IMG/VR virus record: IMGVR_UViG_3300045988_014198
Source of the DNA: a virus
Reading direction: 5' to 3' (one strand)
Length of the DNA: 42,402 nt
Below are positions 11,039 through 42,402 of the stretch, one piece after another; position 1 is the stretch's first letter, and each line of letters starts with the position of its first letter. The position numbers and the translations under genes are program-made. The notes below the pieces were generated by a model that did no database searches, was not told the DNA's origin, and saw nothing but the letters and a program-made list of their open reading frames with translations.

Positions 11039-11368
11039 ATGGAAGCGTGGACAAATGTCGGCGTACCGCTGATCGTGGCGCTGCTGACCTCAACCGCTTT
11101 GTGGGGCGTGGTGAGCAAGGTGATCCTCAAGCGGATGGAGCTGACGGCCAAGCGCAGCAAGGCCGACGATGCGGAGCGGAAGATGCTGGTGGGGCTTGCC
11201 CACGACCGCATCATCCACCTCGGCATGGTGTACATCGAGCGGGGCTACGTCACACAGGACGAGTATGAGAACTTGCAGGTGTATCTATATGAGCCGTATG
11301 AGGAGATGGGCGGCAACGGCAGCGCACGGCGCGTCATGGAGGAAGTGCGGAAGCTGCCCATACGGTGA
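11039..11368 (+). CDS. Single-pass membrane protein, lysis-cassette associated
   Basis: ATG 11039 follows TAGGAGGTGA. It has an N-terminal TM segment (VGVPLIVALLTSTALWGVV) and lies immediately upstream of the holin. Confidence 0.5.
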   Translation: MEAWTNVGVPLIVALLTSTALWGVVSKVILKRMELTAKRSKADDAERKMLVGLAHDRIIHLGMVYIERGYVTQDEYENLQVYLYEPYEEMGGNGSARRVMEEVRKLPIR

Positions 11369-11408
11369 GACAAAATGGAACAGGCCGACAGGCCGGAAAG
11401 GAATTGTT

Positions 11409-11624
11409 ATGAAGCTGAACAACAAGGTATACGACATTCTCAAGTGGTTGGTCATCATCGTTATGCCCGCCGTGGCCACGCTGTACGCAGCGTTGGCGGC
11501 GGTGTGGGCGTGGCCCTATGCTGACGAGGTGGTGACCACCATCACCGCCGTGGACACGTTCCTCGGCGCGGTGCTGTGCATCAGCACGGCACAGTACCAC
11601 AAGGAGGCTGGCAACAATGGCTAA
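11409..11624 (+). CDS. Holin (Dp-1 / LL-H type pattern)
   Basis: 71 aa. KLNNKVYDILKWLVIIVMPAVATLYAALAAVWAWPY..VVTTITAVDTFLGAVL matches the Dp-1-type holin pattern. It overlaps the endolysin start. Confidence 0.75.
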   Translation: MKLNNKVYDILKWLVIIVMPAVATLYAALAAVWAWPYADEVVTTITAVDTFLGAVLCISTAQYHKEAGNNG

Positions 11625-12417
11625 TAGAGTGTATCTGTCCCCCAGTAACCAGCGAAGCAACAGCTATGCGGTGGGCGACACTACCGAGGCCATCCAGTGC
11701 GGGCGCATCGCAGAGGCTTGTAAGGCCGCGCTGGAGCGCTCCGGTGTGGAGGTGATGCTGGGGCAGTACGACACTATGGCAAACCGTGTGGCGGCGTCCA
11801 ACCGCTTTGGGGCTGATTTGCACGTCCCCATCCATTCCAACGCCTGCAACGGAAAAGCCAGCGGTACGCATCTGTTCTGTTACAGCCCCGATAAGGCAAG
11901 CGCAGGGTACAAGGCGTGTAAGGCTGTGATGGATGTACTGGGACCCGTGACGCCGGGTGCGCCGGACGTTATTCGCGCTTATCCAAGCCTGTACGAAGTG
12001 AAGTACCCCGCCGCGCCAACGGTATACATCGAGGTAGATTTCCACGATGTGGTCCACATCGCGGAGTGGATTATTAACCATACGACGCTCATCGGTGAGA
12101 CCATCGCCAAGGGCCTCTGCGCGGCGCTGGGCGTACCCTTTGTGGCGAGGGATGATGCGGAGCCAGCCCCGTCACCTGCACCTGCCGAAACGGTTTCTGT
12201 GGCTGTACGCGTGCTGCGTCGCGGCATGAAAGGCGCAGATGTGAAGACCCTGCAAGCGGCGCTGATCGCCTACGGCTGCTCCTGCGGAGCTGCCGGTGCG
12301 GACGGCGACTTTGGCGGCGGCACGGAGACGGCGCTGAAGAAGTTCCAGACCAAGTACAAGCTTGGTGCGGACGGTATCGCCGGTAAAGGCACCTGGGGCA
12401 AGCTGCTGGGGGAGTAA
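11617..12417 (+). CDS. Endolysin: N-acetylmuramoyl-L-alanine amidase with C-terminal PG_binding_1 domain
   Basis: The N-terminus (VYLSPSNQ...GADLHVPIHSNA...YIEVDFHD) is Amidase_3-like. The C-terminus (LRRGMKGADVKTLQAAL...DGDFGGGTETALKKFQ...GLGADGIAGKGTW) is a classic peptidoglycan-binding repeat. Confidence 0.85.
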   Translation: MANRVYLSPSNQRSNSYAVGDTTEAIQCGRIAEACKAALERSGVEVMLGQYDTMANRVAASNRFGADLHVPIHSNACNGKASGTHLFCYSPDKASAGYKACKAVMDVLGPVTPGAPDVIRAYPSLYEVKYPAAPTVYIEVDFHDVVHIAEWIINHTTLIGETIAKGLCAALGVPFVARDDAEPAPSPAPAETVSVAVRVLRRGMKGADVKTLQAALIAYGCSCGAAGADGDFGGGTETALKKFQTKYKLGADGIAGKGTWGKLLGE

Positions 12418-15740: not shown

Positions 15741-18700
15741 ATGGCTAACGGAACGGTAAAAATGCCGGTGGTCAACACAAAAAAGCAGAAGCAGGGCAGC
15801 GCGCTGGAGATGCCGGTAGTCAATACAAAGAAACAACGCGCTTCCGCAGATACCGTAAAAGCAGATACGTCAGGGCAAAAAAACGCGGCGAAGCAGACGG
15901 GGCAGACAAATTACCGTGAGGTCGATCCACTTCCCAATATTGCGAATACCGGTGCTCTCGGCGCGGGAAATTATGGTGCGGACAAGCAGGCCAACGATGG
16001 GTACAACTATGGAAAGGGCCTGCTGAAAGCGGGAGGCATGGGTCTTTCGGCTATCGCACGAGATGTGACCGCGCCGCTGGCCTTTGGAGAGCGCACGGTG
16101 GCCAAGGGCTGGAACGCGCTGTTTGGAAATATCGCACCGATGAACGAGCGCGGTTTTTTCAACGCATGGGACGAAAATATTGCCCTCGAACAGGAGGGGC
16201 TGCAGCAGAAGTACGCGGAAAACACTGCCAAGGGCGGCCAGTATGCGGAGAAGGGGGAGAATCTGTTGGCGTCTGCGGTGGAGGCGCTGCCCTCGCTGGC
16301 CATCGCCTTCGCCACCGGCGGCACCAGCGCGGCGGCAAAGGCGGGCACCTTGGCAGCGCAGACGGCGGCCAAGAGTTCCCCCGCGCTGGTGCAGACGCTG
16401 AAGAATGTGGCGGCGGCCCGCGCCAAAGATCCCAACTATCTCTTCAGCGCGGCGCAGATCTTCTCCCACAGCTACAACGACGCAAAGACGGAGGGCGTAG
16501 ATGATAAGCGGGCCGCGCTGTACGCTATCGGGAACGCGCTGCTGGGGTCGGAGATCGAGATCAGCGGCGGTATTCAAAACCTGCCCGGAAAGGTGGCGAA
16601 CCAGGCGGCGTGGCGGACGCTGGTGAACACCATGCTGGACGAAGGCAAGGAGGAGGTTTTGCAGGGCATCATCGACCGAACACTGCAAAATGCGGTATAT
16701 GATGCCGATAATCCGTATTTTGGCGTAAACGAAAACGCGATTTTTGATCCAGGAACCGCTGCCGAAGAGTTTGCTGGAGGCGCGATCGTCGGCGGATTGC
16801 TGTCCGGCGGCACAATGGGCGTGAATACCCTTGCCAACCGTGTAGCGTATGGCGCAGCAAAAGCACAGTACAACCGAGACGTGCGGCAGAACACCGCGCC
16901 GGAGATGAACGAAAAGGCTTCGGAGGCGGTGGAGGCTGTGACGCGGGGCGAGACCATCACAGGCAATCAGGCGGCGGCTATCGCCCGTGACCCGGTGGCG
17001 GTGGAGGTGCTGGAGCAGCGCACCGGCGTGAAGCTGGACACGGACAAGCCGATCAGCCAGGTAAAACGGGACATTGCGGGGCTTGCAAGCCGCGAGGCGG
17101 CGCATGAAACGCAGAGAGCTACACCTCCCTCCCCTGCTGTGCAGAAACGCGCAGAGAAGCGCGTAGGCGGCTTTTTGGAAAACGGGCAAAAGGCGTATCA
17201 GGAAATGAGCCGGACGGCAGAGGATGCACCTTCCCTGTATGCAGGATTTTCCAGCGTGTACAACGCGGGACTGAACGGCATCGAAGCGGACAAGGCCAAG
17301 GGCAAGTACGCGGCGATGCTGACGCCGGAGCAGCGGTACGCGGCGTACAATGCTGGGCTGGAGGACGCACGGGCGCAAGTGGCACGGGAGAACGCGGAGG
17401 TAGCATCCGTGACAACCACGGCGGGTGCCGGTCTGGCGGACAACGAGTACAGCCGGGCCATTATTGCCAAAAGCAAGAACACGGCGTCCGTTTTTAATGC
17501 TGTCGGCAAAAAGCTGGGCGTGCGCATTGAATTTGTGGATAAGGTCATGGGCGGCAAAGCCAACGGCCAGTACATCCGGGAGCAGAACCTAATCCAGATC
17601 GCAACCGACAGGAAAAAACCGTATCTGCCGGTGGCGGCGCACGAGATCACCCACCGGATGCAGGACCTTGCGCCCAACGAATACCGGGAGTTCCGCAAGG
17701 CGGCTCTGGAATACCGGATGCGGGAAAACGGCGCGGACACCGAGGCTGAATGGGTCGATACATACATCGAAATCGCGGAACAGGACGGCGTGACGCTGAC
17801 GCAGGACGAAGCGATGGACGAGATCGCGGCGGACTTCGCCGGGGAAATGCTGGACAATATCGACTTGTTCGAGCGCTTCACCAAGGAAAACCGCACCGTG
17901 GCGCAAAAGCTGCTGGACAGTCTGAAGGAGTTTATTGGCAAGGTCAAGTCTATCTTTACCGGCAACGCCAGAGAAAAGGCGGCGCAGGATGCCTACGGCA
18001 AGAGCTTTGGCGAACTGGAAGCCGTGGCACAGAAATGGCAGACGGCCTTTGACGCGGCGGCGAAACGTGCTATAATCAACACAGAAAAGACTTTTACGGA
18101 GGGCGCAGAATATGAACGAGAAGGACGAGCTGGTAAAGAAGCTTATGGACGCGGCGAAGAAGAAGGGCGAGCAGCCGGACGAGGAGAGGATCAAACAGTT
18201 CGTGGAGAGTTTTCTTCTTCTTCTGGACGACACGGAGAAATAGGCGCAGATTTTGGAGAGAAACCTTATCGCGCATGGGTAAGCGGCAATACTATTGCAC
18301 CGGGCGTCGGTTCTGTATCTTATGATGCGCAGAAAACGGCGGCGGAATTTCGCGTGCCCAGTTTTGTGGTATCCGATACTGCATGGGTAAAGGAACGTGG
18401 CGCCAATTCTTCGCCAGCGTTTTCCGTTCACGGGCAGATATATTTCCGCGAAACCGCACCGGAGAGAAACCGTGGTATGCTGGCACCGCACGAAATTACA
18501 CACGTCATGGCTCAGACGGGGTTTTCGCCCTATATTGATTTTGTTGAACGCACCCCGAGTATGCTGAACATGAGTGATCCGGTCACGCAAATTCTGCTTG
18601 AGCAGGTGGCCGCGCATCAAGGTGCGACAATAGAAACGGCAGACCCCGCACACCTGTACGACGAGTTTAACGCCACGATGTATGGGCACATTGCCTCTGG

Positions 18701-21596
18701 CAAAACCGAGTTGTTCACAAGCGGTGAGGGAAAGGGCGTATTTAACGACTATGCCGCCTATGAACAGGAGCTGCGCAGCATCCACGAACAATTCAGAACC
18801 AGAAACGATTCAGACGGGCGCCGACAGCTGCGGAGCACGGAACGGCTTTCCGACGAGCTGGAGGATCTGCGCGACACCTATATCCGCAGGTACGGCGAGA
18901 TACCGGAGGGTGAAAACGCCACGCGCAAGGTGAGGATGCCGCGCAAAACGAGCGACAACAAAAAAGTGTCGCAAACGGTGCGCACCATTCTGGAGGCAAA
19001 AGCCACACCGGATGATCTGACACCTACCATTGAGGAAATGGCGCTGCGCGGTGAGTTCTCGTATGAGGCATATTCCGACAAGAACGCCATTGCTGACGCG
19101 ACGGCAGAGATCAAGCGCGTGGGGTGGGCGCAGGCACTCACGGATTGGACGAGCAGCGTCCAAAAAGGCAACGTTTCCAAGAAGAATACCGCAATGGGCT
19201 GGGCGCTGTATAACAATGCCGCCAACAGCGGCGACACAGCGACTGCGCTGACTGTGCTGAACAATATGGTCGAGCATCAGCGAAGCGCAGCACAAGCACT
19301 GCAAGCCACGCGCATACTGAAAAAGCTTAGTCCCGAAACACAGCTCTATCAGGTGCAGCGCAGCGTTGAAAACTTGCAGGAGGAAATGAACAAGCGCTAT
19401 GGCGACAAAAAATCTCCTAAGCTGAAAATCGACCCGGAGCTGGCGGAGCGATTTATGCGGGCAAAGAATCAGACCGAGCGAGATAAAGCGCTGACTGATA
19501 TCTACCGAGACATTGGCCGTCAGATGCCGTCGAGATTGATCGACAAATGGAACGCATGGCGATATCTTGCGATGCTCGGAAACGCGAGAACTCATGTGCG
19601 AAACATTGTCGGCAATGCTGGGTTCGCCCCGGTCGTCGCCCTTAAAAACACGATTGCCATCGGCATTGAAGCGGGAACAAGCCGCGTTACTGGCGGAAAA
19701 CTTGAGCGAAGCAAAACATTTGCTGGCGGCGCAGAGGGCAAGGCTCTCAGAAAAGCGGCGTCTGCGGATTTTGCAAAAATCCAAGATGCGGTAATGGGCG
19801 GCGGAAAGTACAGCGAGTTCCAAAATGCCAATAAGCATATAGAGGAAGGCCGCGTAATTTTCCAGAGTAAAATTCCCGGTCTAAAGCAAGTCAGCAAGGG
19901 TCTGGAGTGGGCAAGAAAGGCAAACAGCGTTGCGCTGGATGCGGAGGATATGTGGTTTTCTAAGCCGCATTACGCCCACGCAATGGCGCAATACTGCAAG
20001 GCACACGGCATCACGGCAGAAATGATCGCCAAGGGCGAAAACATTGAGAAGGCCAGACAATACGCAATCAAGGAAGCGCAAAAAGCGACATACCGCGACA
20101 CGAACGCTTTTTCTCAGTTCGCAAGCGAGATCGGAAGACGAAGCAGGCAGGGAAACAGAACAGGCGTGGAAAAAGTGGCAAGTGGTATTGTGGAGGGTAT
20201 TCTCCCGTTCCGCAAAACGCCTGCCAACATTTTAGTACGCGGCGTGGAATACAGCCCCATCGGTCTGATGCGCGGCATAAAGCAAGCAGTGTTTGATGTG
20301 AGAGCCGGGAAAATAACGGGCGCAGAAGCCATTGATACGATCTCTGCCGGATTGACCGGCACGGCGTTGGTTGGGCTTGGTGCGTTTCTCGCGGCGCAAG
20401 CTCTTTTGCGTGGACACGGCGGAGATGATGATGATAAGAACAAGTTCGACGAACTGCAAGGGCATCAGGCCTATTCGCTTGAGCTGCCGGATGGGACAAG
20501 CATCACGCTTGATTGGCTGGCTCCGGAGTGTCTCCCGTTGTTTATTGGCGTAAACCTGTGGGAACAGACAAATGGTGGAAAAAGCTCTTTAACGCTGGCG
20601 GAACTGCTGGAAGCAATCTCCAACGTGTCCGAGCCTCTTTTGGAAATGAGCTGTCTGCAAAGCCTAAACGACGTGCTTGACGTAGTGGGATACGCAAAAA
20701 GCGACGGTTTGGCGGCACTTCCAAAGGCTATGGCTAACGCGGCCACCAGTTATCTGACGCAGGCGCTTCCCACGCTTTTAGGTCAGGCAGAACGAACCGG
20801 CGAGGACAAGCGGTATACAACATATACAGACAAGAATGCGTTTTTGACAACGGATATGCAGTATACCCTTGGCCGAGCCAGCGCCCGCATTCCGGGGTGG
20901 GATTATAAGCAGATCCCGTTTATCGACGCATGGGGTCGTACAGAATACACGGGAAAGACCGCAGCGCGTGCCTTTAACAATTTCCTGAATCCCGCTTTTG
21001 TTTCCGAAGTCAATAAAAGCCCGATGGAAACGGAGCTAATGCGGCTATATAACGCAACGGGCGAATCTGTTTTCCCCAGCAGAGCCGGTAAGACAATTAC
21101 TGTCAACGGAGAACGTGTCAATCTGACCGCAGAGGAGTATGTGAAGTACGCCGAAAAGAAAGGGAAGGGAGCATATGACCGGCTTACAAACCTGACAAAG
21201 GACGCGGAGTATAAGAAACTGACGGATGCCGAAAAGGTGCAGTGCGTGGATCTTATTTACACCTTTACTGACCAGATGGCAAAGACAAGCGTCAGCAAGT
21301 ACACGCCTGATTCGTGGGTCAAAAAGGCATCTGAAGCGGAAAAAAAGGGCATCAGCGTCACCGATTTTGTCATTGCAAAGACAAAAGTATCGCCGGTCGA
21401 ATCGCTTAAAGACAGCAAGGGAAATTCGATTCAATACAGCAAAAGCCTTTTGATCATGGAGCGGCTATACACGATTCCCGGATTGACCAGTGAGCAAAGA
21501 CGTATTTTGTTCATTGACTTGGGTGTGAGTGAAAAGGTTGCGCATTACAACAAGGCGCTTGTGCAGCAGGAATTGAATAAGATGCGAAATAAATAA
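15741..21596 (+). CDS. Giant (1951 aa) multidomain virion/ejection-type protein with two zincin HExxH motifs and C-terminal TM segments
   Basis: Uninterrupted 5.9-kb ORF. HEITH occurs at 17640-17654 (aa 634-638) and again at 18489-18503 (aa 917-921). A hydrophobic segment GLTGTALVGLGAFLAAQALL lies near 20347-20406, and MPVVNTKKQ is duplicated at the N-terminus. Confidence 0.8.
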   Translation: MANGTVKMPVVNTKKQKQGSALEMPVVNTKKQRASADTVKADTSGQKNAAKQTGQTNYREVDPLPNIANTGALGAGNYGADKQANDGYNYGKGLLKAGGMGLSAIARDVTAPLAFGERTVAKGWNALFGNIAPMNERGFFNAWDENIALEQEGLQQKYAENTAKGGQYAEKGENLLASAVEALPSLAIAFATGGTSAAAKAGTLAAQTAAKSSPALVQTLKNVAAARAKDPNYLFSAAQIFSHSYNDAKTEGVDDKRAALYAIGNALLGSEIEISGGIQNLPGKVANQAAWRTLVNTMLDEGKEEVLQGIIDRTLQNAVYDADNPYFGVNENAIFDPGTAAEEFAGGAIVGGLLSGGTMGVNTLANRVAYGAAKAQYNRDVRQNTAPEMNEKASEAVEAVTRGETITGNQAAAIARDPVAVEVLEQRTGVKLDTDKPISQVKRDIAGLASREAAHETQRATPPSPAVQKRAEKRVGGFLENGQKAYQEMSRTAEDAPSLYAGFSSVYNAGLNGIEADKAKGKYAAMLTPEQRYAAYNAGLEDARAQVARENAEVASVTTTAGAGLADNEYSRAIIAKSKNTASVFNAVGKKLGVRIEFVDKVMGGKANGQYIREQNLIQIATDRKKPYLPVAAHEITHRMQDLAPNEYREFRKAALEYRMRENGADTEAEWVDTYIEIAEQDGVTLTQDEAMDEIAADFAGEMLDNIDLFERFTKENRTVAQKLLDSLKEFIGKVKSIFTGNAREKAAQDAYGKSFGELEAVAQKWQTAFDAAAKRAIINTEKTFTEGAEYEREGRAGKEAYGRGEEEGRAAGRGEDQTVRGEFSSSSGRHGEIGADFGEKPYRAWVSGNTIAPGVGSVSYDAQKTAAEFRVPSFVVSDTAWVKERGANSSPAFSVHGQIYFRETAPERNRGMLAPHEITHVMAQTGFSPYIDFVERTPSMLNMSDPVTQILLEQVAAHQGATIETADPAHLYDEFNATMYGHIASGKTELFTSGEGKGVFNDYAAYEQELRSIHEQFRTRNDSDGRRQLRSTERLSDELEDLRDTYIRRYGEIPEGENATRKVRMPRKTSDNKKVSQTVRTILEAKATPDDLTPTIEEMALRGEFSYEAYSDKNAIADATAEIKRVGWAQALTDWTSSVQKGNVSKKNTAMGWALYNNAANSGDTATALTVLNNMVEHQRSAAQALQATRILKKLSPETQLYQVQRSVENLQEEMNKRYGDKKSPKLKIDPELAERFMRAKNQTERDKALTDIYRDIGRQMPSRLIDKWNAWRYLAMLGNARTHVRNIVGNAGFAPVVALKNTIAIGIEAGTSRVTGGKLERSKTFAGGAEGKALRKAASADFAKIQDAVMGGGKYSEFQNANKHIEEGRVIFQSKIPGLKQVSKGLEWARKANSVALDAEDMWFSKPHYAHAMAQYCKAHGITAEMIAKGENIEKARQYAIKEAQKATYRDTNAFSQFASEIGRRSRQGNRTGVEKVASGIVEGILPFRKTPANILVRGVEYSPIGLMRGIKQAVFDVRAGKITGAEAIDTISAGLTGTALVGLGAFLAAQALLRGHGGDDDDKNKFDELQGHQAYSLELPDGTSITLDWLAPECLPLFIGVNLWEQTNGGKSSLTLAELLEAISNVSEPLLEMSCLQSLNDVLDVVGYAKSDGLAALPKAMANAATSYLTQALPTLLGQAERTGEDKRYTTYTDKNAFLTTDMQYTLGRASARIPGWDYKQIPFIDAWGRTEYTGKTAARAFNNFLNPAFVSEVNKSPMETELMRLYNATGESVFPSRAGKTITVNGERVNLTAEEYVKYAEKKGKGAYDRLTNLTKDAEYKKLTDAEKVQCVDLIYTFTDQMAKTSVSKYTPDSWVKKASEAEKKGISVTDFVIAKTKVSPVESLKDSKGNSIQYSKSLLIMERLYTIPGLTSEQRRILFIDLGVSEKVAHYNKALVQQELNKMRNK

Positions 21597-21679: not shown

Positions 21680-21925
21680 ATGAATCAGGAGCACCGTAAA
21701 ATACGGGCTATGCTGCATAGCATGGCACCCAAGAGAGCTATCGCGTGGATCCAATCTTTTGACTTGCCGCAGGAGGAGGCACAGTGTATCGCGGAATGCG
21801 ATGTGCGGGGACGAAGCTGCGTGGAAGCGGCTTTCTCCCTCCACGTTTCGCCGGAGACGGTGAAAAAGTACCGCAGACGGGCATACGGAAAAATAGCGGA
21901 CGGAATGAAATTTTACGGAGAATAA
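21680..21925 (+). CDS. Small HTH regulator, sigma-70 region-4-like
   Basis: 81 aa. The C-terminal SLHVSPETVKKYRRRAYGKI resembles a region-4/LuxR-type HTH. The start is abutted by a 6-bp hairpin (21665-21679). The start codon choice is uncertain. Confidence 0.45.
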   Translation: MNQEHRKIRAMLHSMAPKRAIAWIQSFDLPQEEAQCIAECDVRGRSCVEAAFSLHVSPETVKKYRRRAYGKIADGMKFYGE

Positions 21926-21930
21926 AAGAA

Positions 21931-21965
21931 CTGCCAGCACAAGCTGGCAGTCTCTTTATTTTTTT
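21931..21965. terminator. Bidirectional intrinsic terminator between convergent genes
   Basis: CTGCCAGC-ACAA-GCTGGCAG hairpin flanked by an A-run upstream and a T-run downstream (TCTCTTTATTTTTTT). Confidence 0.7.
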
Positions 21966-22330
21966 GGCTGCTTCTTTAGCCACACAATGTAGCATATAAG
22001 ACCTGAAAGCACAGCGCCAATTATGTATTTTGCCTCGTCCGGCATATACCAACCAAGTTTATCTATCAAAACCGAAATTCCAAGTGTTCCATAGTACAAC
22101 CCATAAGAAATCCAACTCACACAGTCCTCTGAAATATTTGTAATCAGCAATAATATTCCCATAAGAGTTAGAGGGGCGCAAAAAAGCAGGTACATTGCAA
22201 GAGACAAATTTACAAACCTATGAAATCCGCCACCGCATAAAGCGACTACCGCCCCCAAAAACAATGCAACCAATGCAGATATAATTGCATAAAAAAATGC
22301 AGACCCTTTTCTTGATGTAAAAAACTTCAC
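21956..22330 (-). CDS. AT-rich cargo gene: small polytopic membrane protein (possible superinfection exclusion)
   Basis: A GTG at 22330 follows GGGGGA. About four hydrophobic segments (FFYAIISALVALFLGAVVAL, LAMYLLFCAPLTLMGILLLI, YGLYYGTLGISVLI, IIGAVLSGLICYIVW). The longer ORF call (to 22546) would run through a consensus promoter on the other strand. Confidence 0.55.
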   Translation of the reverse strand: MKFFTSRKGSAFFYAIISALVALFLGAVVALCGGGFHRFVNLSLAMYLLFCAPLTLMGILLLITNISEDCVSWISYGLYYGTLGISVLIDKLGWYMPDEAKYIIGAVLSGLICYIVWLKKQPKK

Positions 22331-22380
22331 GCGCAATTCCCCCGCTTTCAGCAAATATATTACACGAGGAATAAATATCC

Positions 22381-22426
22381 TTGACTTTTGGCAGACAAAT
22401 GTTATAATAGCATTATGGCAGACAAA
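22381..22426 (+). promoter_or_regulatory. Near-consensus sigma-70 promoter flanked by an 11-nt direct repeat (putative operator)
   Basis: TTGACT (22381-22386), 16-nt spacer, TATAAT (22403-22408). TGGCAGACAAA occurs at 22389-22399 and 22416-22426, bracketing the -10 element. Confidence 0.6.
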
Positions 22427-22441
22427 AGTGAGGTGATGATA

Positions 22442-22615
22442 ATGTCGCCAAGAACAGGCCGACCTACTGACAATCCCAAACAAGATCGAATTACCGTCAG
22501 GCTGGACAACGAGGCAAATCAAATACTGCGATTGTACTGCGAACAAAAATTAGTAGACAAGGCAGAAGCTATACGCAGAGGGATTAAAAAGTTGGCCGGA
22601 GAAATTGAGAAATGA
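22442..22615 (+). CDS. Ribbon-helix-helix (Arc/CopG-like) repressor
   Basis: 57 aa. The ATG follows GTGAGGTGA. KQDRITVRLDNEANQILRLYCEQKLVDKAEAIRRGIKKL fits the beta-strand plus two-helix RHH pattern. Confidence 0.7.
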   Translation: MSPRTGRPTDNPKQDRITVRLDNEANQILRLYCEQKLVDKAEAIRRGIKKLAGEIEK

Positions 22616-22738
22616 AACAGCCCGTCACCCTCAGAAAGTCACGGACTGTCTCTATACCCCCAGCCGCCGCAGCGGATGGTTAAATCTATTATAACCGGCG
22701 CTGCGGTGAAAATCAACTGAAAAGAGAGGATTTTTACC

Positions 22739-22966
22739 ATGACTGTTAAGGAAATTTGCGATGTTCTCCAAAATCCCCGTGAGGTCAACCTGTCGGCAGA
22801 CGGCTTCTGCTACCCCGTGATGCGGGACGGCGAAAAGGAATACGATCTTGTGATGATGGCCGCGTTTGGCGACTGCAAGGTGCGGAATCTGATATCCTGC
22901 AGGAACAAGGACGGATGCTTTGAAATCGCGCTGGCGATGGATCTGGTGAAGGAGGTGCAGTCATGA
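22739..22966 (+). CDS. Hypothetical small protein
   Basis: 75-aa ORF with an RBS (AGAGAGGA). Its stop overlaps the antirepressor start (ATGA). Confidence 0.5.
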   Translation: MTVKEICDVLQNPREVNLSADGFCYPVMRDGEKEYDLVMMAAFGDCKVRNLISCRNKDGCFEIALAMDLVKEVQS

Positions 22967-23700
22967 GCGAGCTGATGATCTTCAACAACCCGTATTTCGG
23001 GGATGTGCGCATCGTGGAGCAGAAGGGCGAGCCGTGGTTTGTGGGGAAGGACGTGGCGACGGCGCTGGGGTATAAGAACAGCAGGCAGGCCCTTGCAACG
23101 AATGTGGACGTTGACGATAGGGGCGTCCAAGAAATGGACACCCCCTCCGGAACGCAGGAGATGACCATCATCAACGAGAGCGGCTTGTACTCCCTTATCC
23201 TTGGCTCCAAGCTGCCCACGGCGAAGGAGTTCAAGCGGTGGGTGACGGGTGAGGTGCTGCCCGCTATCCGCAAGCACGGAGGCTACGTGAACGGGCAGGA
23301 AAGCATGACGCCGGAGGAGCTGATGGCGGCGGCGCTGCTGATGGCGCAGAGAACCATCGCAGACAGGGACGCGCGTATCTCCACGCTGACTGTGGAAAAT
23401 CAGATCATGGCACCAAAGGCAGACTACTTCGACCAGCTGGTGGAGCGGAACACGCTGACGAACTTCCGGGAGACGGCCAAGGCGCTGGAGGTATCGCCGA
23501 AGAAGTTTGTATCGTTCCTACTGGAGAAGAAGTATATCTATCGGGACAGCAAGGGCAAACTGCTGCCCTATGAGGCGAAGAACGACGGTCTTTTCGAGGT
23601 GAAGGAGTGTTTGAACGAAAAGACGAAGTGGAGCGGCGTACAGACGCTGATCACGCCGAAGGGGCGGGAGACATTCCGGCTTCTGTTTCCTGCGGCATAA
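22963..23700 (+). CDS. Antirepressor (BRO-N domain + KilA-C/ANT domain)
   Basis: The N-terminus (IFNNPYFGDVRIVEQKGEPWFVGKDVATALGY...SGLYSLILGSKLP.AKEFKRWVT.EVLPAIRKHG) is a classic Bro-N. The C-terminus (KADYFDQLV...NFRETAKAL...KKFVSFLLEKKYIYRD) is KilAC-like. Confidence 0.8.
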   Translation: MSELMIFNNPYFGDVRIVEQKGEPWFVGKDVATALGYKNSRQALATNVDVDDRGVQEMDTPSGTQEMTIINESGLYSLILGSKLPTAKEFKRWVTGEVLPAIRKHGGYVNGQESMTPEELMAAALLMAQRTIADRDARISTLTVENQIMAPKADYFDQLVERNTLTNFRETAKALEVSPKKFVSFLLEKKYIYRDSKGKLLPYEAKNDGLFEVKECLNEKTKWSGVQTLITPKGRETFRLLFPAA

Positions 23701-23716
23701 GGCACTTTCCATACGC

Positions 23717-23747
23717 AAAGCAGACCCTTCCGGGGGTCTGCTTTTTT
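23717..23747 (+). terminator. Intrinsic terminator after the ant operon
   Basis: GCAGACCC (23720-23727) pairs with GGGTCTGC (23734-23741), followed by TTTTTT (23742-23747). Confidence 0.75.
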
Positions 23748-23777: not shown

Positions 23778-24161
23778 ATGTTCGTATGGTATAACCCGAA
23801 TCCCTCCGGCAAGAACGTGGGAGACTGTCCTGTTCGCGCGATCTGCCGCGCCACGGGGCAGGGCTGGCATGAGACGTATGTGCAGCTTTGTATGCAGGGT
23901 CTGGCTCTTGCGGATATGCCCAGCGCCAACAACGTGTGGGGCGCGTATCTCAAGAAGCTGGGCTTTTCACGGCATATCATCCCGGAGGACTGCTCGGACA
24001 GCTATTCCGTGAGTGATTTTGCAATGGATCACCCGCGTGGTACATATCTGCTGGCGCTGGCGTCCCATGTGGTGTGCGTGATAGACGGAGACTGGCACGA
24101 CACATGGGATTCCGGAGCCGAAACACCCTTGTATTACTGGGAAAGGACGGATGAAGCATGA
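23778..24161 (+). CDS. Cargo gene a: hypothetical protein with papain-like Cys...His...Asp order
   Basis: The ATG follows GAGAGGTGG. NVGDCPVRAI (Cys) ... ASHVVCVIDGDWHDTWDSG (His, Asp) is arranged as in papain/NlpC-type thiol hydrolases. This is pattern only, with no family match confirmed. Confidence 0.45.
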   Translation: MFVWYNPNPSGKNVGDCPVRAICRATGQGWHETYVQLCMQGLALADMPSANNVWGAYLKKLGFSRHIIPEDCSDSYSVSDFAMDHPRGTYLLALASHVVCVIDGDWHDTWDSGAETPLYYWERTDEA

Positions 24162-24568
24162 ACTATCCATACTACGGAAACCCCTATATGCCGCCGATGC
24201 AGGACAACCTCGCCCAGCTGAGGCAGCAGCAGATGCAGGCCATTCCGCCGATGCCGCAAAATCCTCTGCCGCAGAGCGGCGTGCAGTGGGTATCCGGCGA
24301 ACAGGAGGCAAGAAGCTGGATGGTCGCGCCCAATGCGGCGGTGGCGCTGTGGGACTCGACGGCTCCCACGGTGTATCTGAAACAGGCCGATGCAAGCGGC
24401 AAGCCGACGCTCAAGGTGTACGACCTTGTGGAGCGGCTTGCAAGCGCTCCTGATACGCAGAAAGCGCCCGCTGCGGAATATGTGACCCGTAAGGAGTTCG
24501 ACGCGCTGGCGGCGCTTGTGAGCGAAATGAAGGGCAAGAAGCGCAAGGAGGAAAAGAGCGATGAATAA
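24158..24568 (+). CDS. Cargo gene b: hypothetical protein with a P/Q/Y-rich N-terminus
   Basis: The start overlaps the gene a stop (ATGA). MNYPYYGNPYMPPMQ...QQQMQAIPPMPQNPLPQ is followed by a compact domain (GVQWVSGEQEARSWMVAPNAAVALWDS...) and a K/E-rich tail. Confidence 0.5.
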   Translation: MNYPYYGNPYMPPMQDNLAQLRQQQMQAIPPMPQNPLPQSGVQWVSGEQEARSWMVAPNAAVALWDSTAPTVYLKQADASGKPTLKVYDLVERLASAPDTQKAPAAEYVTRKEFDALAALVSEMKGKKRKEEKSDE

Positions 24569-24761
24569 TCCGTTTTTCGGTGCAATGGGCGGCGGCAACG
24601 GCTTTATGCAGATGGTGCAGCAGTTCAAGCAGTTCAAGGCGAATTTCCAAGGCGACCCAAAAGCAGAGGTGGAAAAGCTATTGCAAAGCGGCAAGCTCAC
24701 GCAGCAGCAGTTGAACCAGCTCCAGCAGATGGCGAAGCAATTTCAAAGTCTAATGGAATAA
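24561..24761 (+). CDS. Cargo gene c: small Q-rich helical protein
   Basis: 66 aa, overlapping the gene b stop by 8 nt. It has a Gly-rich N-terminus (FFGAMGGGNGFMQ) and then a Q/K-rich helix. Confidence 0.45.
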   Translation: MNNPFFGAMGGGNGFMQMVQQFKQFKANFQGDPKAEVEKLLQSGKLTQQQLNQLQQMAKQFQSLME

Positions 24762-24766
24762 GCAAA

Positions 24767-24809
24767 ACATAAGACGAAACGTAAGACGAAACGTAAGACA
24801 AAACGTAAC
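24767..24809. repeat. 12-bp tandem repeat x3.6 (ACGTAAGACGAA consensus), intergenic
   Basis: ACATAAGACGAA / ACGTAAGACGAA / ACGTAAGACAAA / ACGTAAC read directly from the sequence, located between cargo genes c and d. Confidence 0.9.
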
Positions 24810-24866
24810 TTGTTTCTTGATCGTGGCCGCGATTCAGATAAATTACAACTACAAAGGAGTGATACT

Positions 24867-25559
24867 ATGTCTATTTCCGAGGGTATGCCCACCATGACCA
24901 TGCCTGTGGCCCCTGCCAATGGCAGCGGTAACGGCTTTGGCTTTGGCGGTGACGGCGCGTGGTTCCTCATCATCCTGTTCCTGTTCGCGTTCTGCGGCTG
25001 GGGCGGAAATGGCTGGGGCAACAGCGGCAATTCCGGTGGTGTGGTGGACGGCTATGTGCTGGCCTCCGACTTCTCCAACATCGAGCGCAAAATGGATCTC
25101 ATCAACGGCGGGCTGTGCGACGGCTTTTATGCCGTGAACAACACGCTGTTGACCGGTTTCGGCAATGCCGAGCTGTCCCGCGCCAACCAGCAGGCCGCAC
25201 TGATGCAGCAGCTCAGCGCTATGCAGATGCAGGCGGCAAACTGCTGCTGCGAGAACAGAGCCGCCATTGCGCAGGTGCGCTACGACATGGCGACGCAGGC
25301 GTGTGACACGCGGAACACCGTGCAGAACGCCACCCGCGACATCGTGGAGAACCAGAACGCCAACAGCCGCGCCATCCTGGACTTCCTGACCAACTCCAAG
25401 ATGCGCGATCTGGAGAGCGCAAATCAGGAGCTGCGTCTGGCCGCGTCTCAGGCTGCGCAGAACAACTACCTGATCTCCCAGCTGCGGCCTACGCCCATCC
25501 CGGCGTATGCATCCTGCAATCCGTGGGCTGGCAGCTACACCGGCTGCTCCGGCTGCTGA
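24867..25559 (+). CDS. Cargo gene d: Gly/Asn-rich membrane protein with Q/N/A-rich helical domain and Cys-rich C-terminus
   Basis: The ATG follows AAAGGAGTGA. GNGFGFGGDG-AWFLIILFLFAFCGW-GGNGWGNSGNSGG is one TM segment flanked by G/N tracts. There is an internal CCC and a C-terminal CNPWAGSYTGCSGC. Confidence 0.55.
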   Translation: MSISEGMPTMTMPVAPANGSGNGFGFGGDGAWFLIILFLFAFCGWGGNGWGNSGNSGGVVDGYVLASDFSNIERKMDLINGGLCDGFYAVNNTLLTGFGNAELSRANQQAALMQQLSAMQMQAANCCCENRAAIAQVRYDMATQACDTRNTVQNATRDIVENQNANSRAILDFLTNSKMRDLESANQELRLAASQAAQNNYLISQLRPTPIPAYASCNPWAGSYTGCSGC

Positions 25560-25619
25560 CAACTGCATAGGAATCTATTTCCAAAACGGAAATTGTTCAG
25601 CTCCGGGCTGATATTAAAA

Positions 25620-25654
25620 GGCGGCGGGGCAATAGCTCCGCCGTCTGCATTTTT
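25620..25654 (+). terminator. Intrinsic terminator after cargo gene d
   Basis: An 11-bp stem, GGCGGCGGGGC / GCTCCGCCGTC (two G-U pairs), with loop AATA, followed by TGCATTTTT. Confidence 0.55.
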
Positions 25655-25670
25655 GAAAGGAGTGAGTATT

Positions 25671-26093
25671 TTGGCTGAATATGTAAATACCAACATTGTT
25701 ACCGTACCTGCTGGACAGAATGTACCGCTGACGGAAACTGCCGTTGCGGGCAAGTCCTGCATCGTACACCGCGAGGGGAGCGGGCAGGTGTTCTTGCGTG
25801 GCCTGACAAACCAGTGCAAGGCGCGTTTCCGTGTGTCCTTCGGCGGAAACATTGCCATCCCCACCGGTGGCACGGTGGGCGCAATCTCCGCCGCGCTGGC
25901 TATCAACGGAGAGCCGCTGACCAGCGCCGTGGCGACAGTAACGCCCGCCGCCGTGGAGAACTATTTTAACATCTTTGTCGCTGCCAATGTGGACGTGCCG
26001 AAGGGCTGCTGCGTAACGGTAGCGATGGAGAACACCAGCGCTCAGGCGATCAGCTTTGCCAATAGCAACATGATCGTGGAGCGCGTCTGCTGA
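25671..26093 (+). CDS. Cargo gene e: all-beta protein, possibly a C1q/TNF/BclA-CTD-like jelly roll
   Basis: A TTG start follows AAAGGAGTGAG (start uncertain). The composition suggests alternating beta strands. LAINGEPLTSAVATV...NIFVAANVDVPKGCCVTVAMENTS...ISFANSNMIVERVC resembles the pattern of BclA-type C-terminal domains. Confidence 0.45.
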   Translation: MAEYVNTNIVTVPAGQNVPLTETAVAGKSCIVHREGSGQVFLRGLTNQCKARFRVSFGGNIAIPTGGTVGAISAALAINGEPLTSAVATVTPAAVENYFNIFVAANVDVPKGCCVTVAMENTSAQAISFANSNMIVERVC

Positions 26094-26106
26094 AAGGAGG
26101 GGCAAC

Positions 26107-26502
26107 ATGAACATGAAGGAGCTTTTCGGCATCCGGGAGATGCTGTGCGAGGAGCTGTCTGAGTTTTCCGGCCAGCGGGAGCTGAGCGCTGCTGAACTGG
26201 ACGCCATCCACAAACTGGCATCGTCCATCAAAAACATTGACAAAATTGCCATGTTTGAAAGCGGCGACTACAGCCGCGACGATGGGTATTCCCGCGATGA
26301 TGGCTATTCCCGTGACTGGTCTTCCGGTCGCACCGCCTACAACAGAGGCAGCTCGTATCGGCGCAAGAGGGATTCTATGGGCCGGTACAGCCGCGATGAG
26401 GGCAAGGCAAAGGATCTGATCGAGCGCATGATGCAGGACACCGACGATCCCAACGTAAAGGAAGCGCTGCGGCAGGCAATGCACGTTGTTGAGAACGGGT
26501 GA
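26107..26502 (+). CDS. Cargo gene f: hypothetical protein with (D)DGYSRD repeats
   Basis: 131 aa. A helical N-terminus (LSAAELDAIHKLASSIKNIDKI) is followed by GDYSRDDGYSRDDGYSRD, an R/S/Y-rich linker and a helical C-terminus. Confidence 0.5.
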   Translation: MNMKELFGIREMLCEELSEFSGQRELSAAELDAIHKLASSIKNIDKIAMFESGDYSRDDGYSRDDGYSRDWSSGRTAYNRGSSYRRKRDSMGRYSRDEGKAKDLIERMMQDTDDPNVKEALRQAMHVVENG

Positions 26503-26546: not shown

Positions 26547-26581
26547 AAAATCCCTGTAACCGTTGTGGTTACAGGGATTTT
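26547..26581. terminator. Bidirectional intrinsic terminator
   Basis: AAAATCCCTGTAACC-GTTGT-GGTTACAGGGATTTT: a perfect 10-bp GC-containing stem extended by A/T runs on both sides. Confidence 0.75.
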
Positions 26582-26583
26582 TG

Positions 26584-26638
26584 TGGTGCGCGGTACAGGA
26601 CTCGAACCTGTGACCCCATGCACGTCAAATATGGACAA
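26584..26638 (-). other. attP core: 3' portion of a tRNA gene (T-arm, acceptor 3' strand, CCA; reads as Val-GAC if homology reaches the anticodon loop)
   Basis: The reverse complement reads TTGACGT-GCATG-GGGTC-ACAGG-TTCGAGT-CCTGT-ACCGCGC-A-CCA. No matching 5' acceptor strand or D-arm is present, so this is a fragment. It is adjacent to the integrase. Confidence 0.7.
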
Positions 26639-26744: not shown

Positions 26745-27830
26745 TTACAAATTACTTGCAGATTCAACGGCGGAGATGAGCTTTTCCGCGTCTGCATGGA
26801 TGTAAATGTCCGCCGTGGTGGAGAAGTTTGCGTGACCGATGATCTTCTGCAAGATCTCCGGCTGGATGCCTGAACTTCTCGCCCATGTTGCGTAAGTGTG
26901 GCGCGTGGCGTGGGGTGTGTGCTTTGGGATACCGAGCTTTTCCAGCAACGGATAGAAATCACGTTTGCGGTAATTGGCGGGGATGCGCTGCCCATCGTAG
27001 CCGGAAATGAGCAGGTCGCCGGTGGCGCGGGAGGCGAAGTATGCAAAATACTTCCTACCATCCGGGCGGATGGGAATGACGCGGTCTCTACCGGCTTTTG
27101 TCTTTTCGCCGCCGATCACATACGATTCATGGTAGTCTTTCAGCGGCAGGGAGAACAATTCACCGATGCGCATACCGGTGTAAATCATCATAAGGGCGAT
27201 TTTGGCGGCGTCGGAGCCGTCTTTTTCCAATAGCGCGATCTCGTCATCTGTAAAGATGGCTTTTTCTTTTTTTACCTGCTGGGGCAGCTTGACGTATTTG
27301 GCAAAGTCGGTTGTGGCGATCTCCTCACGGACAGCCCAGCGGGCCATCTGGGTCATGAGCTGCTTGTATTTGGACAGCGTGGAGTTGGACTTTGCCATGT
27401 TGCTGTCGATGATGGCTTGAAAGTCCTTTGTGCGCAGGTCGCGGAATTTCTTGTTGTGCAGCGGAGCACATACGGCGTAGGCTCTGTCATAGGATTCTAC
27501 GCCCTTCTCCCCTATCTCCCGATAGTGTTCGGCTTTCCATTCGGTGAACACTTCGGAAAAGGTCATATTGAACTTTTCCTCCAGCGGACGGCCTGCCAGC
27601 CGATCCAGTGCGGCCAGCGCGTCCGTCTTCCGCTCGTAGTACCCGATATATACGCCGTCTTTTGCGGCGACCCAAGGCCGGGACCGCCGCCCACCCAGCT
27701 TATACACCGTGCCGGACCCGTTGGGGCGTTTCAGCGCCTTGCGGGAGGCCGTGACCTGCTTTTTCCCGCAGATATGGCAATAAACGGCATCCGGTACCAG
27801 GGGGACGCCGCATTTAATACAAGTAGACAT
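26745..27830 (-). CDS. int: Tyrosine integrase with N-terminal zinc ribbon
   Basis: 361 aa. The C-terminal HATRHTYATWA...LQKIIGHANFSTTADIYIH carries the R-H-R-Y catalytic signature. The N-terminus is CIKCG...CHICG. RBS is GTGAGGTG. Confidence 0.9.
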   Translation of the reverse strand: MSTCIKCGVPLVPDAVYCHICGKKQVTASRKALKRPNGSGTVYKLGGRRSRPWVAAKDGVYIGYYERKTDALAALDRLAGRPLEEKFNMTFSEVFTEWKAEHYREIGEKGVESYDRAYAVCAPLHNKKFRDLRTKDFQAIIDSNMAKSNSTLSKYKQLMTQMARWAVREEIATTDFAKYVKLPQQVKKEKAIFTDDEIALLEKDGSDAAKIALMMIYTGMRIGELFSLPLKDYHESYVIGGEKTKAGRDRVIPIRPDGRKYFAYFASRATGDLLISGYDGQRIPANYRKRDFYPLLEKLGIPKHTPHATRHTYATWARSSGIQPEILQKIIGHANFSTTADIYIHADAEKLISAVESASNL

Positions 27831-27932: not shown

Positions 27933-28322
27933 TTATTTCTGGAACAGGCCCATATCGGGGTTCAGCATATCAATGGTGATGCCGTATGCCAGGGCGAGAG
28001 CAAGCAGGATCATCAGGCCGAGGATCAGCTGATTCTTGTGGCGTATGGCTTTGGCGAGGATATGATTCATTTCCTGCTCGTGGGCAAGCTGCGCTTCAAG
28101 GGACGGATCGGGCGTTGGCTGAATATGAAAAAAAGCGTCTATCGACACACCGAGGACGCGGCAGATGGGTCCCGCTGTGTAGATAGACGGCATTTTGGAC
28201 GACGATGAAAAAAAGTTGTTGACGCTGGACAGCGGAACGTCGGAATTGTCGGATATGTCCTGCGCCGTCATCTTTTCTCGGTATTTGGCTTCTCTGCAAA
28301 TTTCCTGTAAAGATTCTTCCAT
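27933..28322 (-). CDS. Membrane-anchored XRE-family HTH protein
   Basis: The N-terminus (KMTAQDISDNSDVPLSSVNNFFSS...ICRVLGVSIDAFF) is XRE-type HTH. The C-terminus has a TM segment (LILGLMILLALALAYGITI). RBS is GAGGGAGGAA. Confidence 0.65.
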   Translation of the reverse strand: MEESLQEICREAKYREKMTAQDISDNSDVPLSSVNNFFSSSSKMPSIYTAGPICRVLGVSIDAFFHIQPTPDPSLEAQLAHEQEMNHILAKAIRHKNQLILGLMILLALALAYGITIDMLNPDMGLFQK

Positions 28323-39488: not shown

Positions 39489-39779
39489 ATGAACAACAAT
39501 CAGGACTACATCGTTCGCTGTGACCGCGCAGGCGTGTTTTTCGGCAAGATCAAAGAGAGAAGCGGCTCCGAGGTCACCATGACCGAGGTGCGTAAGCTGT
39601 GGAGCTGGGACGGCGCGTGTGCCGTGGAGCAGCTGGCGCAAGACGGCACAAAAGCACAGGGCAACTGCCACTTTACCGTGACGATCCCGGAAATGACCGT
39701 GCTGGGCGCGATCCAGATCATCCCGTGCACGGATGATGCATCGGTATCGCTTCGCGGCGTAAAGGAGTGGAAGAGATGA
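39489..39779 (+). CDS. Small conserved phage protein, cassette copy A, first gene
   Basis: 96 aa. The ATG follows AATCAGGAGGAA. YIVRCDRAGVFFGKI...VRKLWSWDGACAVEQLAQDGTK is about two thirds identical to 41990-42286. It resembles a widespread small early phage protein family whose name I cannot confirm. Confidence 0.65.
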   Translation: MNNNQDYIVRCDRAGVFFGKIKERSGSEVTMTEVRKLWSWDGACAVEQLAQDGTKAQGNCHFTVTIPEMTVLGAIQIIPCTDDASVSLRGVKEWKR

Positions 39780-42286: not shown

Positions 42287-42402
42287 GCGCGCTGGATGAG
42301 AAAGTCAAAGCATTTTTGTCTGTAAGCTCCGGCTCCGGCTACGGCTCCGGCTACGGCGACGGCTCCGGCGACGGCTCCGGCGACGGCTCCGGCGACGGCT
42401 AC
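42283..42402 (+). CDS. G-(Y/D/S) repeat protein, copy B, 5' part (3'-truncated by the window edge; continues at 2-628)
   Basis: The ATG overlaps the upstream TGA. MSALDEKVKAFLSVSSGSGYGSGYGDGSG... parallels the copy A N-terminus MTLDDKIKAFLTVSYGSGDG. Confidence 0.7.
   Translation, partial: MSALDEKVKAFLSVSSGSGYGSGYGDGSGDGSGDGSGDGY
42324..42402 (+). repeat. Coding microsatellite array (start of the copy B array)
   Basis: Same four-codon vocabulary. The window ends inside it. Confidence 0.9.

Follow-up and report, generated by a model that had tools for sequence, protein, structure and literature searches.

A cassette of six plus-strand genes, here called a to f, occupies positions 23778–26502 of the viral genome IMGVR_UViG_3300045988_014198, whose whole stretch of 42,402 nucleotides was analysed and is referred to below as the window. 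The analysis showed that this cassette is a conserved, mobile and self-contained unit, in which protein a is linked to protein b, protein d is of membrane type with invariant cysteines, and protein e has a predicted TNF/C1q fold. At a probability that we put at roughly 0.35, and hence tentatively, we read a–f together with the sigma-70 region-4-like gene at 21680–21925 as one conserved, self-regulated and horizontally mobile phage module. Such a module would serve the phage's own infection cycle rather than being host-conversion cargo, and its products would build a membrane-tethered, Cys-linked complex acting on the membrane of the infected cell. The cassette was rated as lying outside the known kinds of system, and its function is inferred.

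Gene content of the cassette

Gene a (23778–24161, 127 amino acids) overlaps gene b (24158–24568) through an ATGA sequence, and b overlaps gene c (24561–24761, 66 amino acids) by 8 nt, both pairs being translationally coupled. They are followed by d (24867–25559, 230 amino acids), e (25671–26093, 140 amino acids, with a TTG start) and f (26107–26502). These open reading frames (ORFs), with their coordinates and overlaps, had been proposed in a first-pass annotation of the window and were borne out by ORF analysis. The start of a was placed at ATG 23778 and not at GTG 23769 because the ribosome-binding site (RBS) and the N-termini of the homologues agree on it. All six proteins matched PHROG families, every one of them of unknown function, and they are therefore the products of real genes and not of chance ORFs. 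The cluster had also been described as compositionally odd. This holds for the proteins, which are of low complexity, and not for the DNA: the GC content of the cassette (0.55–0.60) is similar to that of the rest of the phage.

Conservation and position among phages

A total of 92 related loci were fetched and compared with the window by tblastn. Genes a–f were collinear in nearly all of them at identities of 33–100%, which settles positively a check that the first-pass annotation had proposed, namely whether the six genes travel together. A homologue of the 81-residue protein encoded at 21680–21925 (m81) lay directly upstream of a, at a distance of 100–450 nt, in most of these loci, and a sigma-r4 gene preceded the cassette in three lineages, including bajarodcaudo virus 5. 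The m81 protein, encoded on the plus strand, is a sigma-70 region-4-like helix-turn-helix (HTH) protein (Pfam Sigma70_r4_2, E 3.9e-5; PHROG 3512, "sigma factor"), and it is likely to be the regulator of the cassette. A search with e retrieved 12 loci from bacterial genomes, mostly metagenome-assembled genomes of Oscillospiraceae and other Clostridia, and at least 577 IMG/VR contigs carry this gene.

The order b-c-d-e-f was maintained down to 30–45% identity and across unrelated phage backbones. One locus (L101) holds the cassette, with a d that is 98% identical, behind an HK97-type capsid backbone, and another (L100) holds it at a different tRNA attachment (att) site. Two allelic forms of a were found beside near-identical b–e among the relatives, and f likewise has two forms in close relatives (98–100% or ∼42% identical) beside near-identical b–e. 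Recombination thus appears to shuffle the edges of the cassette while the core is kept. Such breakpoints inside the cluster, together with the lack of a family assignment for any of the six proteins, would also suit six unrelated small ORFs that are chance neighbours with no common function. We consider this very improbable, given the order that is kept over such distances and backbones, the translational coupling, and the a–b fusions and shared cassette-specific control elements described below.

The place of the cassette differs from phage to phage. Butyrivibrio phage Ceridwen, which was isolated as a lytic phage and is probably virulent according to its authors (PMC7372960), carries a sigma-like gene, a, b, c, d, e, a homing-endonuclease gene and f after its endolysin gene. 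The prophage of the cultured strain Vescimonas fastidiosa MM35 has b–f directly after holin and amidase at its right end, and bajarodcaudo virus 5 has, after holin and lysin, a Sigma70_r4 gene, b, c, d, and genes for a Cys-rich beta protein and a long f-like protein. Gene a, two membrane-protein genes and b–f are found within the head module of Dulem virus 35, with lysin and integrase 15 kb off, and genes b, c, d and e of Dulem virus 39 come after the integrase and adjoin replication genes. A reduced form (b, c, an HNH gene, d and a Cys-rich beta protein gene) stands among the early genes of C. perfringens phage CPD1. A d-like gene lies beside RecT/YqaJ genes in the cultured Bacteroides phage C3_41T2LP and among tail genes in the crAss-like phage cr52_1. 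These varied positions argue against lysogen-specific cargo and against a fixed part of the virion, and suggest instead an accessory unit that is mobile and whose role is intrinsic to the phage.

The first-pass annotation had regarded the genes as lysogenic-conversion or defence cargo placed next to attP. The location itself was confirmed. In four lysogen contigs the match to the window ends at 26615–26628, within an entire tRNA gene of the host, beyond which host genes follow; the match of L099, L101 and L102 runs to 26628 and on into the full tRNA gene and host genes. The attP core (26583–26628, minus strand) is identical to the 3' half of the host tRNA gene. As cargo, the genes would be expressed from the prophage, and their products would act on the envelope or form a structure that is secreted or displayed on the surface, to the benefit or protection of the lysogen. 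The cluster does adjoin attR in lysogens, and in the Vescimonas prophage it follows holin and amidase at the right end. Terminators and a promoter-like element of its own are present, L099 and L102 seem to show a truncated prophage in which it is retained, and e is similar to spore surface proteins. However, the cassette is near-universal among the 92 loci, whereas a moron would be patchy among related phages and confined to temperate ones. It is present in Ceridwen, a phage isolated as lytic, d is present in crAss-like phages (Crassvirales), and head or early-module positions are found in other phages. Five of the six proteins also have no export signal, and there were no PADLOC matches. The assignment as cargo parked at attP was thus not upheld, and we regard a role of this kind as unlikely.

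Searches for export signals and for known families gave a similar picture. An N-terminal hydrophobic segment was found in none of a, b, c, e and f, a membrane-type segment being present only in d; no signal-peptide-like N-terminus was seen among the six proteins, and no lipobox in a, b, c, e or f. With five proteins lacking such a segment and with an acidic N-terminal tail on d, the earlier suggestion of a secreted or surface-assembled structure appears doubtful. Searches of the cassette proteins against Pfam and NCBIfam returned sub-threshold noise only. PADLOC gave one insignificant match (E 0.021), and a known defence system was rejected. As no nucleic-acid-targeting or known defence family was matched, the view that the cluster is not a nucleic-acid-targeting system stood. 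Sequence searches of the PDB found nothing for a, b, d and e as single sequences or for b, d and f as profiles. The literature on DUF7841, phage BclA/exosporium proteins, crAss lysis and C. perfringens phage proteomics held nothing that bears on the cassette proteins.

Variation was also seen in and around the cassette. Its coding genes were intact in several phages despite homing-endonuclease or insertion-sequence insertions in or beside it. Homing-endonuclease genes adjoin d or e in Ceridwen, CPD1 and C3_41T2LP, the places listed being L093 6518–7312, L094 4044–4667 and L103 3763–4383. The c–d spacer of L026, L068 and L077 contains insertions of 0.7–1.0 kb. An extra ORF of ∼45 residues (...RLLxxGYTxxMAxDI...), situated immediately upstream of a and translationally coupled to it, occurs in L003, L011, L017, L054, L057, L093 and other relatives and is absent from the window. 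In L002, L005, L008, L072 and L077 the terminator is separated from e by an ORF of ∼70 residues. Positions 1–1007 of L099/L102 show host amidohydrolase and glyoxalase genes abutting a 5'-truncated giant-protein gene, which is followed by an intact cassette and attR. This junction is either a decayed prophage with a retained cassette or an assembly chimera; the search reported seven further similar places.

Control elements

The 12-bp tandem repeat that had been noted before d was found at 24765–24808 on the plus strand, with 3.7 copies of period 12. Its copy number varies from 2 to 4 among near-identical phages, and it is absent from distant relatives. It is followed by a putative promoter/operator of d (24817–24843, plus strand), which consists of TTGATC, the imperfect palindrome TGATCGTGGCCGCGATTCA and GATAAAT. 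A palindrome of the ATCGTGGCCACGAT type, followed by GATAAAT or TATAAA, is conserved in the relatives ∼25 nt upstream of the RBS of d. The arms of the palindrome co-vary between lineages, and the element is kept where d is only 40–75% identical.

The leader between d and e (25577–25662, plus strand) holds three hairpins. Hairpin 1 (25577–25593) is followed by TGTTC and hairpin 2 (25597–25611) by GATATT, and hairpin 3 (25619–25646, with a T-run) is the intrinsic terminator after d, standing directly upstream of the RBS of e (GAAAGGAG, 25655–25662, plus strand). Of 40 distinct relatives, 39 have all three, and compensatory changes in them are numerous. Hairpin 1 was found with at least 10 unrelated stem sequences, and hairpin 2 is flanked by conserved TGNTC and GATAYT. 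A search of Rfam with the leader gave no match. The leader may be an attenuator, an antitermination element or a protein-binding site, and the output of e–f appears to be gated separately from that of d.

The cassette is closed by a hairpin terminator at 26547–26581, which together with the hairpins at 23717–23744 and 25619–25646 accounts for the three terminators predicted earlier. A search across the window for the palindrome/−10 element and for the three-hairpin leader found no second copy; the control elements are not repeated elsewhere in the phage and therefore give no link to the late operon. With its own palindrome/−10 box and leader, the cassette therefore has its own control elements.

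The putative thiol enzyme a and its partners b and c

A papain-like order of Cys, His and Asp had been noticed in a, and it was supported by both alignment and structure prediction. Residues C17, H97 and D108 were invariant in the alignment, C17 in 61 sequences. AlphaFold2 (AF2) models were made for a and e. The model of a, with a predicted local distance difference test (pLDDT) score of 94.5, shows C17 opening a helix (17–26), with H97 and D108 bordering strands 98–102 and 105–108 on the hairpin that follows the Cys helix, which agrees with the order of the papain fold. In a, the Cys at a helix N-terminus, the His that opens a strand and the Asp 11 residues after it form an arrangement like that of papain-fold cysteine enzymes (Josephin deubiquitinases, NlpC/P60 and Tae4 amidases, and transglutaminase-type Cys-His-Asp enzymes). 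The best match in a Foldseek search of the PDB was Josephin-2 (E 0.16, TM-score 0.45, a weak match), and Tae4 gave a TM-score of 0.34. A search of BFVD found the same fold in 22 uncharacterised phage proteins (E ≤ 0.001) and a match to an Orpheovirus Josephin-domain protein (E 0.014). The family of a has 3387 representatives at 50% identity. Unlike the known enzymes, a has only 127 residues and gave no significant match to them and no Pfam or MEROPS-type hit, and its conserved YNPNP.GK.VGDC loop is not found in the papain-fold comparators. We regard a as a putative papain-fold thiol enzyme.

Natural a–b fusions (P0429 and P0484) consist of an a domain, a Q/N/P-rich linker and a b domain, and a is therefore functionally tied to b. 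A search for a-domain fusions that would name a substrate gave only the a–b fusions and a–a tandems, with no Pfam domain attached. Two relatives of a (P0418 and P0470) have tandem a domains in single proteins, one of them with an N-terminal hydrophobic segment; by this feature some members of the family may be membrane-anchored or exported.

Protein b, which belongs to PHROG 21718, was seen in alignment A3 to have a P/Q/Y-rich N-terminal region, a conserved domain of ∼50 residues (WV.GE..A..Y.V.PN..V.LWD....Y.K..D.SG.P) and a C-terminal helix with a K/E tail. Protein c has 66 residues and is basic (pI 9.3), with 21% Gln. It is conserved at the corresponding position in Ceridwen, Dulem virus 35, Dulem virus 39, CPD1 and bajarodcaudo virus 5.

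Membrane-type protein d

Protein d is built of an acidic N-terminal tail of ∼30 residues, a Gly/Trp-flanked hydrophobic helix and a Q/N/A-rich helical domain. It carries an invariant CCC motif (C126–128), the motif SQ..Q...RP.P.PAY and a C-terminal Cys cluster. The single transmembrane helix and the Cys-rich end that had been ascribed to d match the one hydrophobic core (residues 30–45) and the Cys content of 3.9%. The hallmarks of the protein were invariant in 21 diverse homologues. The N-terminal tail contains 0–1 K/R and 1–5 D/E in 20 of these 21, and from this short, acidic and K/R-poor tail the large domain is suggested to be cytoplasmic. We infer on the same basis a topology with the N-terminus outside and the C-terminus inside.

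Protein d belongs to PHROG 16490 and forms at least 7986 clusters at 90% identity, all of them unnamed; a homologue search with d returned near-identical sequences only, with no functional names. Phages of C. perfringens and Bacteroides and crAss-like phages encode homologues of it. In both Bacteroidota phages the d-like proteins have retained the CCC motif, SQQAQ...RP.P.PAY and a C-terminal CGCG tail. A beta-rich protein with a C-I-W-R string is encoded after the d-like gene in both, that of C3_41T2LP also having a CC pair, and each of these loci also has an RD/YD-repeat segment and a DUF7841 domain. No homology was detectable between e and the Cys-rich beta proteins that take its slot in CPD1, bajarodcaudo virus 5 and crAss cr52_1. 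The likeness of f to DUF7841 or the RD/YD-repeat proteins in the Bacteroidota phages was only one of composition.

The architecture of d was compared with two groups of known membrane proteins. Holin T of phage T4, with its antiholins RI and RIII (class III), is alike in its length of ∼220–230 residues, its short N-terminal segment, its single N-proximal transmembrane domain and its large Cys-containing C-terminal domain. Small partner genes lie near d, and the cassette adjoins lysis genes in Ceridwen, bajarodcaudo virus 5 and the Vescimonas prophage. However, there is no sequence similarity to the T4 holin, and the topology is probably opposite, with the C-terminal domain of d inside. The cassette is far from lysis genes in several phages, and no cassette protein gave a holin or spanin match in PHROG or Pfam. 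A lysis cassette was rejected for the window, whose own holin (11169–11624) and endolysin (11617–12417) lie elsewhere, 12 kb away.

The second group is formed by p16.7 and p1 of phage phi29, which are membrane organisers of replication. These non-structural proteins are anchored in the membrane at the N-terminus and have a coiled coil and a C-terminal domain on the cytoplasmic side, as proposed for d, and d is found among replication or recombination genes in CPD1, C3_41T2LP and Dulem virus 39. They differ from d in that there is no homology and no recognisable DNA-binding domain in d, and its Cys motifs and TNF-like partner have no counterpart there.

Jelly-roll protein e and low-complexity protein f

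The suggestion that e is a BclA/C1q-like beta protein gained support from structure matches. The AF2 model (pLDDT 89) is all-beta, with the jelly roll beginning at residue 2. Foldseek matched it to 91 PDB entries at E ≤ 0.001, of which F-BclA, BclA, EDA-A1, ExsFA and BxpB stand at the top with TM-scores of 0.69–0.79. The E values for F-BclA, BclA, ExsFA and BxpB were 3e-7 to 1e-5, and TNF-family ligands and phage fibre knobs follow. We are confident, as far as a predicted model allows, that e is a TNF/C1q-type jelly roll. No other cassette protein is as strongly conserved; C30, C49, C113 and C114 of e are invariant in alignment A2, and e forms 7532 clusters at 90% identity, all unnamed.

Exosporium proteins of the Bacillus cereus group, namely the C-terminal domain of BclA, F-BclA and ExsFA/BxpB, are TNF/C1q-like trimers with the same jelly-roll fold and size as e, also with no signal peptide. 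They assemble in the cytoplasm of the mother cell with Cys-rich partners. Protein e differs from them in being only 8–14% identical, with no Pfam match, no collagen-like GXX repeats and no N-terminal exosporium-targeting motif, and the cassette is encoded by phages, including those of non-spore-forming hosts. A spore-specific function was rejected, despite the BclA/ExsFA fold and a faint YppG-like composition, because the cassette or its d core is present in Butyrivibrio and Bacteroides phages. Butyrivibrio and Bacteroides hosts are not known to form spores.

These resemblances also suggest an intracellular cross-linked layer or condensate, in which a would act as a transglutaminase- or deamidase-type enzyme on the Gln-rich b, c and d, and the Cys-rich d and e would self-assemble like spore coat or exosporium proteins. 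Such a reading agrees with the Cys-His-Asp triad of a on a papain fold, with the Gln-rich partners (21% Q in c, and a P/Q/Y head in b with a faint YppG-like match), with the Q/N-rich linkers of the a–b fusions and with the low complexity of f and c. The nearest structures to e are, moreover, exosporium proteins that assemble in the cytoplasm. Yet a has no sequence match or significant structural match to a transglutaminase or deamidase, phages of unrelated hosts also encode small proteins that share the fold of a although no b–f cassette was detected in them, and the hosts include non-spore-formers. As it is drawn entirely from analogy, we hold this possibility to be quite improbable.

TNF-like knobs cap phage fibres and spikes, and the cassette could accordingly be seen as a set of virion parts, with d as a trimeric coiled-coil shaft, e as a TNF-like knob (of a tail needle, central fibre or head fibre) and a, b, c and f as assembly factors. 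The Sf6-type tail needle knob, PRD1 P5 and the phi812 central spike knob join a coiled-coil shaft to a TNF-like knob, and the capsid of the window is of podovirus type. The phi812 central spike and cyanophage fibres were among the Foldseek matches of e, some d-like proteins are annotated as "viral fiber" or "spike", and the cassette comes after internal-virion and giant-protein genes in the window, while it lies in the head module of Dulem virus 35 and, as the d-like gene, among the tail genes of crAss cr52_1. Here, however, the shaft and knob would be separate proteins, and d has a membrane-type helix. The cassette has no fixed place relative to structural genes and is not tied to tail genes: in Ceridwen, bajarodcaudo virus 5 and Vescimonas it follows lysis genes, and its neighbours in CPD1, C3_41T2LP and Dulem virus 39 are early genes or genes for recombination. 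One and the same cassette occurs on both podovirus-type and HK97/siphovirus-type backbones, and a membrane-type helix, a thiol enzyme and a dedicated regulator would be unusual for a fibre. A virion role is thus improbable in our estimate, more so than that of lysogen cargo.

Protein f has an acidic N-terminal helix, a disordered centre rich in Y, S, R and D, and a C-terminal helix, the two helices being conserved. The DGYSRD repeats that had been reported in f were found three times in this centre, together with RDSMGRYSRD; the repeat that encodes them lies at 26274–26316 and has a period of 18.

Proposed mechanism

Under the proposal of a membrane-acting module for the phage's own cycle, d would insert into the cytoplasmic membrane by its single Gly/Trp-flanked helix, leaving its short acidic tail outside and its Q/N-rich helical domain inside, where it would oligomerise. 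The CCC motif and the C-terminal Cys cluster of d may then join the conserved Cys and CC residues of e through metal or disulfide bonds, giving a membrane-tethered stalk with a jelly-roll cap. The low-complexity proteins f and c would be cofactors, and the thiol enzyme a would act on or through b. The a–b–c unit and the terminator-ended d unit would have separate expression signals, and e–f, lying behind the three-hairpin leader whose last hairpin is the terminator of d, would form a separately gated output. The complex would act on the membrane of the infected cell. Should this proposal hold, the block of superinfecting phages would be the leading candidate role, though still a tentative one; lysis timing and a tether for replication or assembly are each somewhat less likely.

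Several points weigh against this proposal. No cassette protein has a characterised homologue, and the function is therefore read from architecture alone. The topology of d is deduced from charge bias, and its C-terminal side also has no clear positive cluster. Homology of e and f to the same-slot proteins of CPD1, bajarodcaudo virus 5 and the Bacteroidota phages is undetectable. In several Oscillospiraceae prophages, as in the window, the cassette has terminators of its own and is placed at the attR end, where a lysogen-expressed moron would also be expected. Lastly, five to seven genes are a lot for superinfection exclusion.

A bolder extension, which we consider a long shot, is that the cassette represents an unrecognised phage machinery, common among the phages that infect gut anaerobes from the Clostridia to the Bacteroidota. 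A papain-fold enzyme with Gln-rich partners as its targets would mature a Cys- or metal-linked membrane stalk (d) with a TNF-like trimer cap (e), and the sigma-r4 regulator and the RNA leader would switch it on. This would amount to an exosporium-like assembly inside infected, non-sporulating cells, maybe with redox- or oxygen-sensitive control of exclusion or release.

Surroundings of the cassette in the window

The window is a complete temperate phage of ∼42 kb. It encodes a terminase, a portal, collagen-like fibres and a capsid protein related to those of Bacillus Page-type podoviruses. Internal-virion genes and the gene of a 1951-residue protein come after the holin–endolysin pair, and are followed by the sigma-r4 gene, a low-GC island, a–f, attP and the integrase (26745–27830, minus strand). 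The giant protein (15741–21596) has two HEITH (HExxH) motifs at residues 634 and 917. Its counterparts in relatives, including L099–L101, range from 1075 to at least 2727 residues, one of them with a PBECR5 nuclease domain. From these features it looks like a polyvalent protein that is probably injected.

The island between m81 and a (21956–23700) has a GC content that falls to 0.45 at 22001–23000. It contains a minus-strand ORF for a 124-residue protein with multiple transmembrane segments (21956–22330), a repressor-like ORF of 75 residues (22388–22615), a second 75-residue ORF (22739–22966) and, as its last gene, the anti-repressor Ant (22963–23700). The ant unit ends in the intrinsic terminator at 23717–23744 (plus strand), which lies 30 nt upstream of the RBS of a. 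Among the 92 loci, the repressor-like ORF, the 75-residue ORF and a cassette-adjacent ant were found only in L047 and L048, and L071 gave a distant ant match elsewhere than beside the cassette. As these ORFs were detected only in the two closest relatives, the island reads as an insertion and not as part of the cassette. Its layout is similar to that of the sieA/immI region of phage P22.

A gene beside the integrase (27933–28322, minus strand) encodes a 129-residue protein with an HTH_3 domain and a C-terminal hydrophobic helix, features by which it may be a membrane-anchored repressor. Two paralogous genes, at 39767–40513 and across the ends of the window (∼42286 to 628), encode long (GDGS)n/(GY)n repeat heads with a conserved domain of ∼150 residues behind them. 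The repeats are encoded by tandem arrays of 6, 12 and 18 nt at 39816–40044, 42326–42402 and 3–163.

Implications

In public metagenomes, the clusters at 90% identity number more than 7,500 for d and likewise for e, and none of them bears a functional name. The availability of a cultured lysogen (Vescimonas fastidiosa MM35) and of a cultured lytic phage (Ceridwen) makes the cassette testable. The results also correct the shortcut by which genes beside attP are taken to be host-conversion cargo. An abundant, conserved multi-gene unit with its own regulator in human-gut phages marks a clear gap in phage biology.

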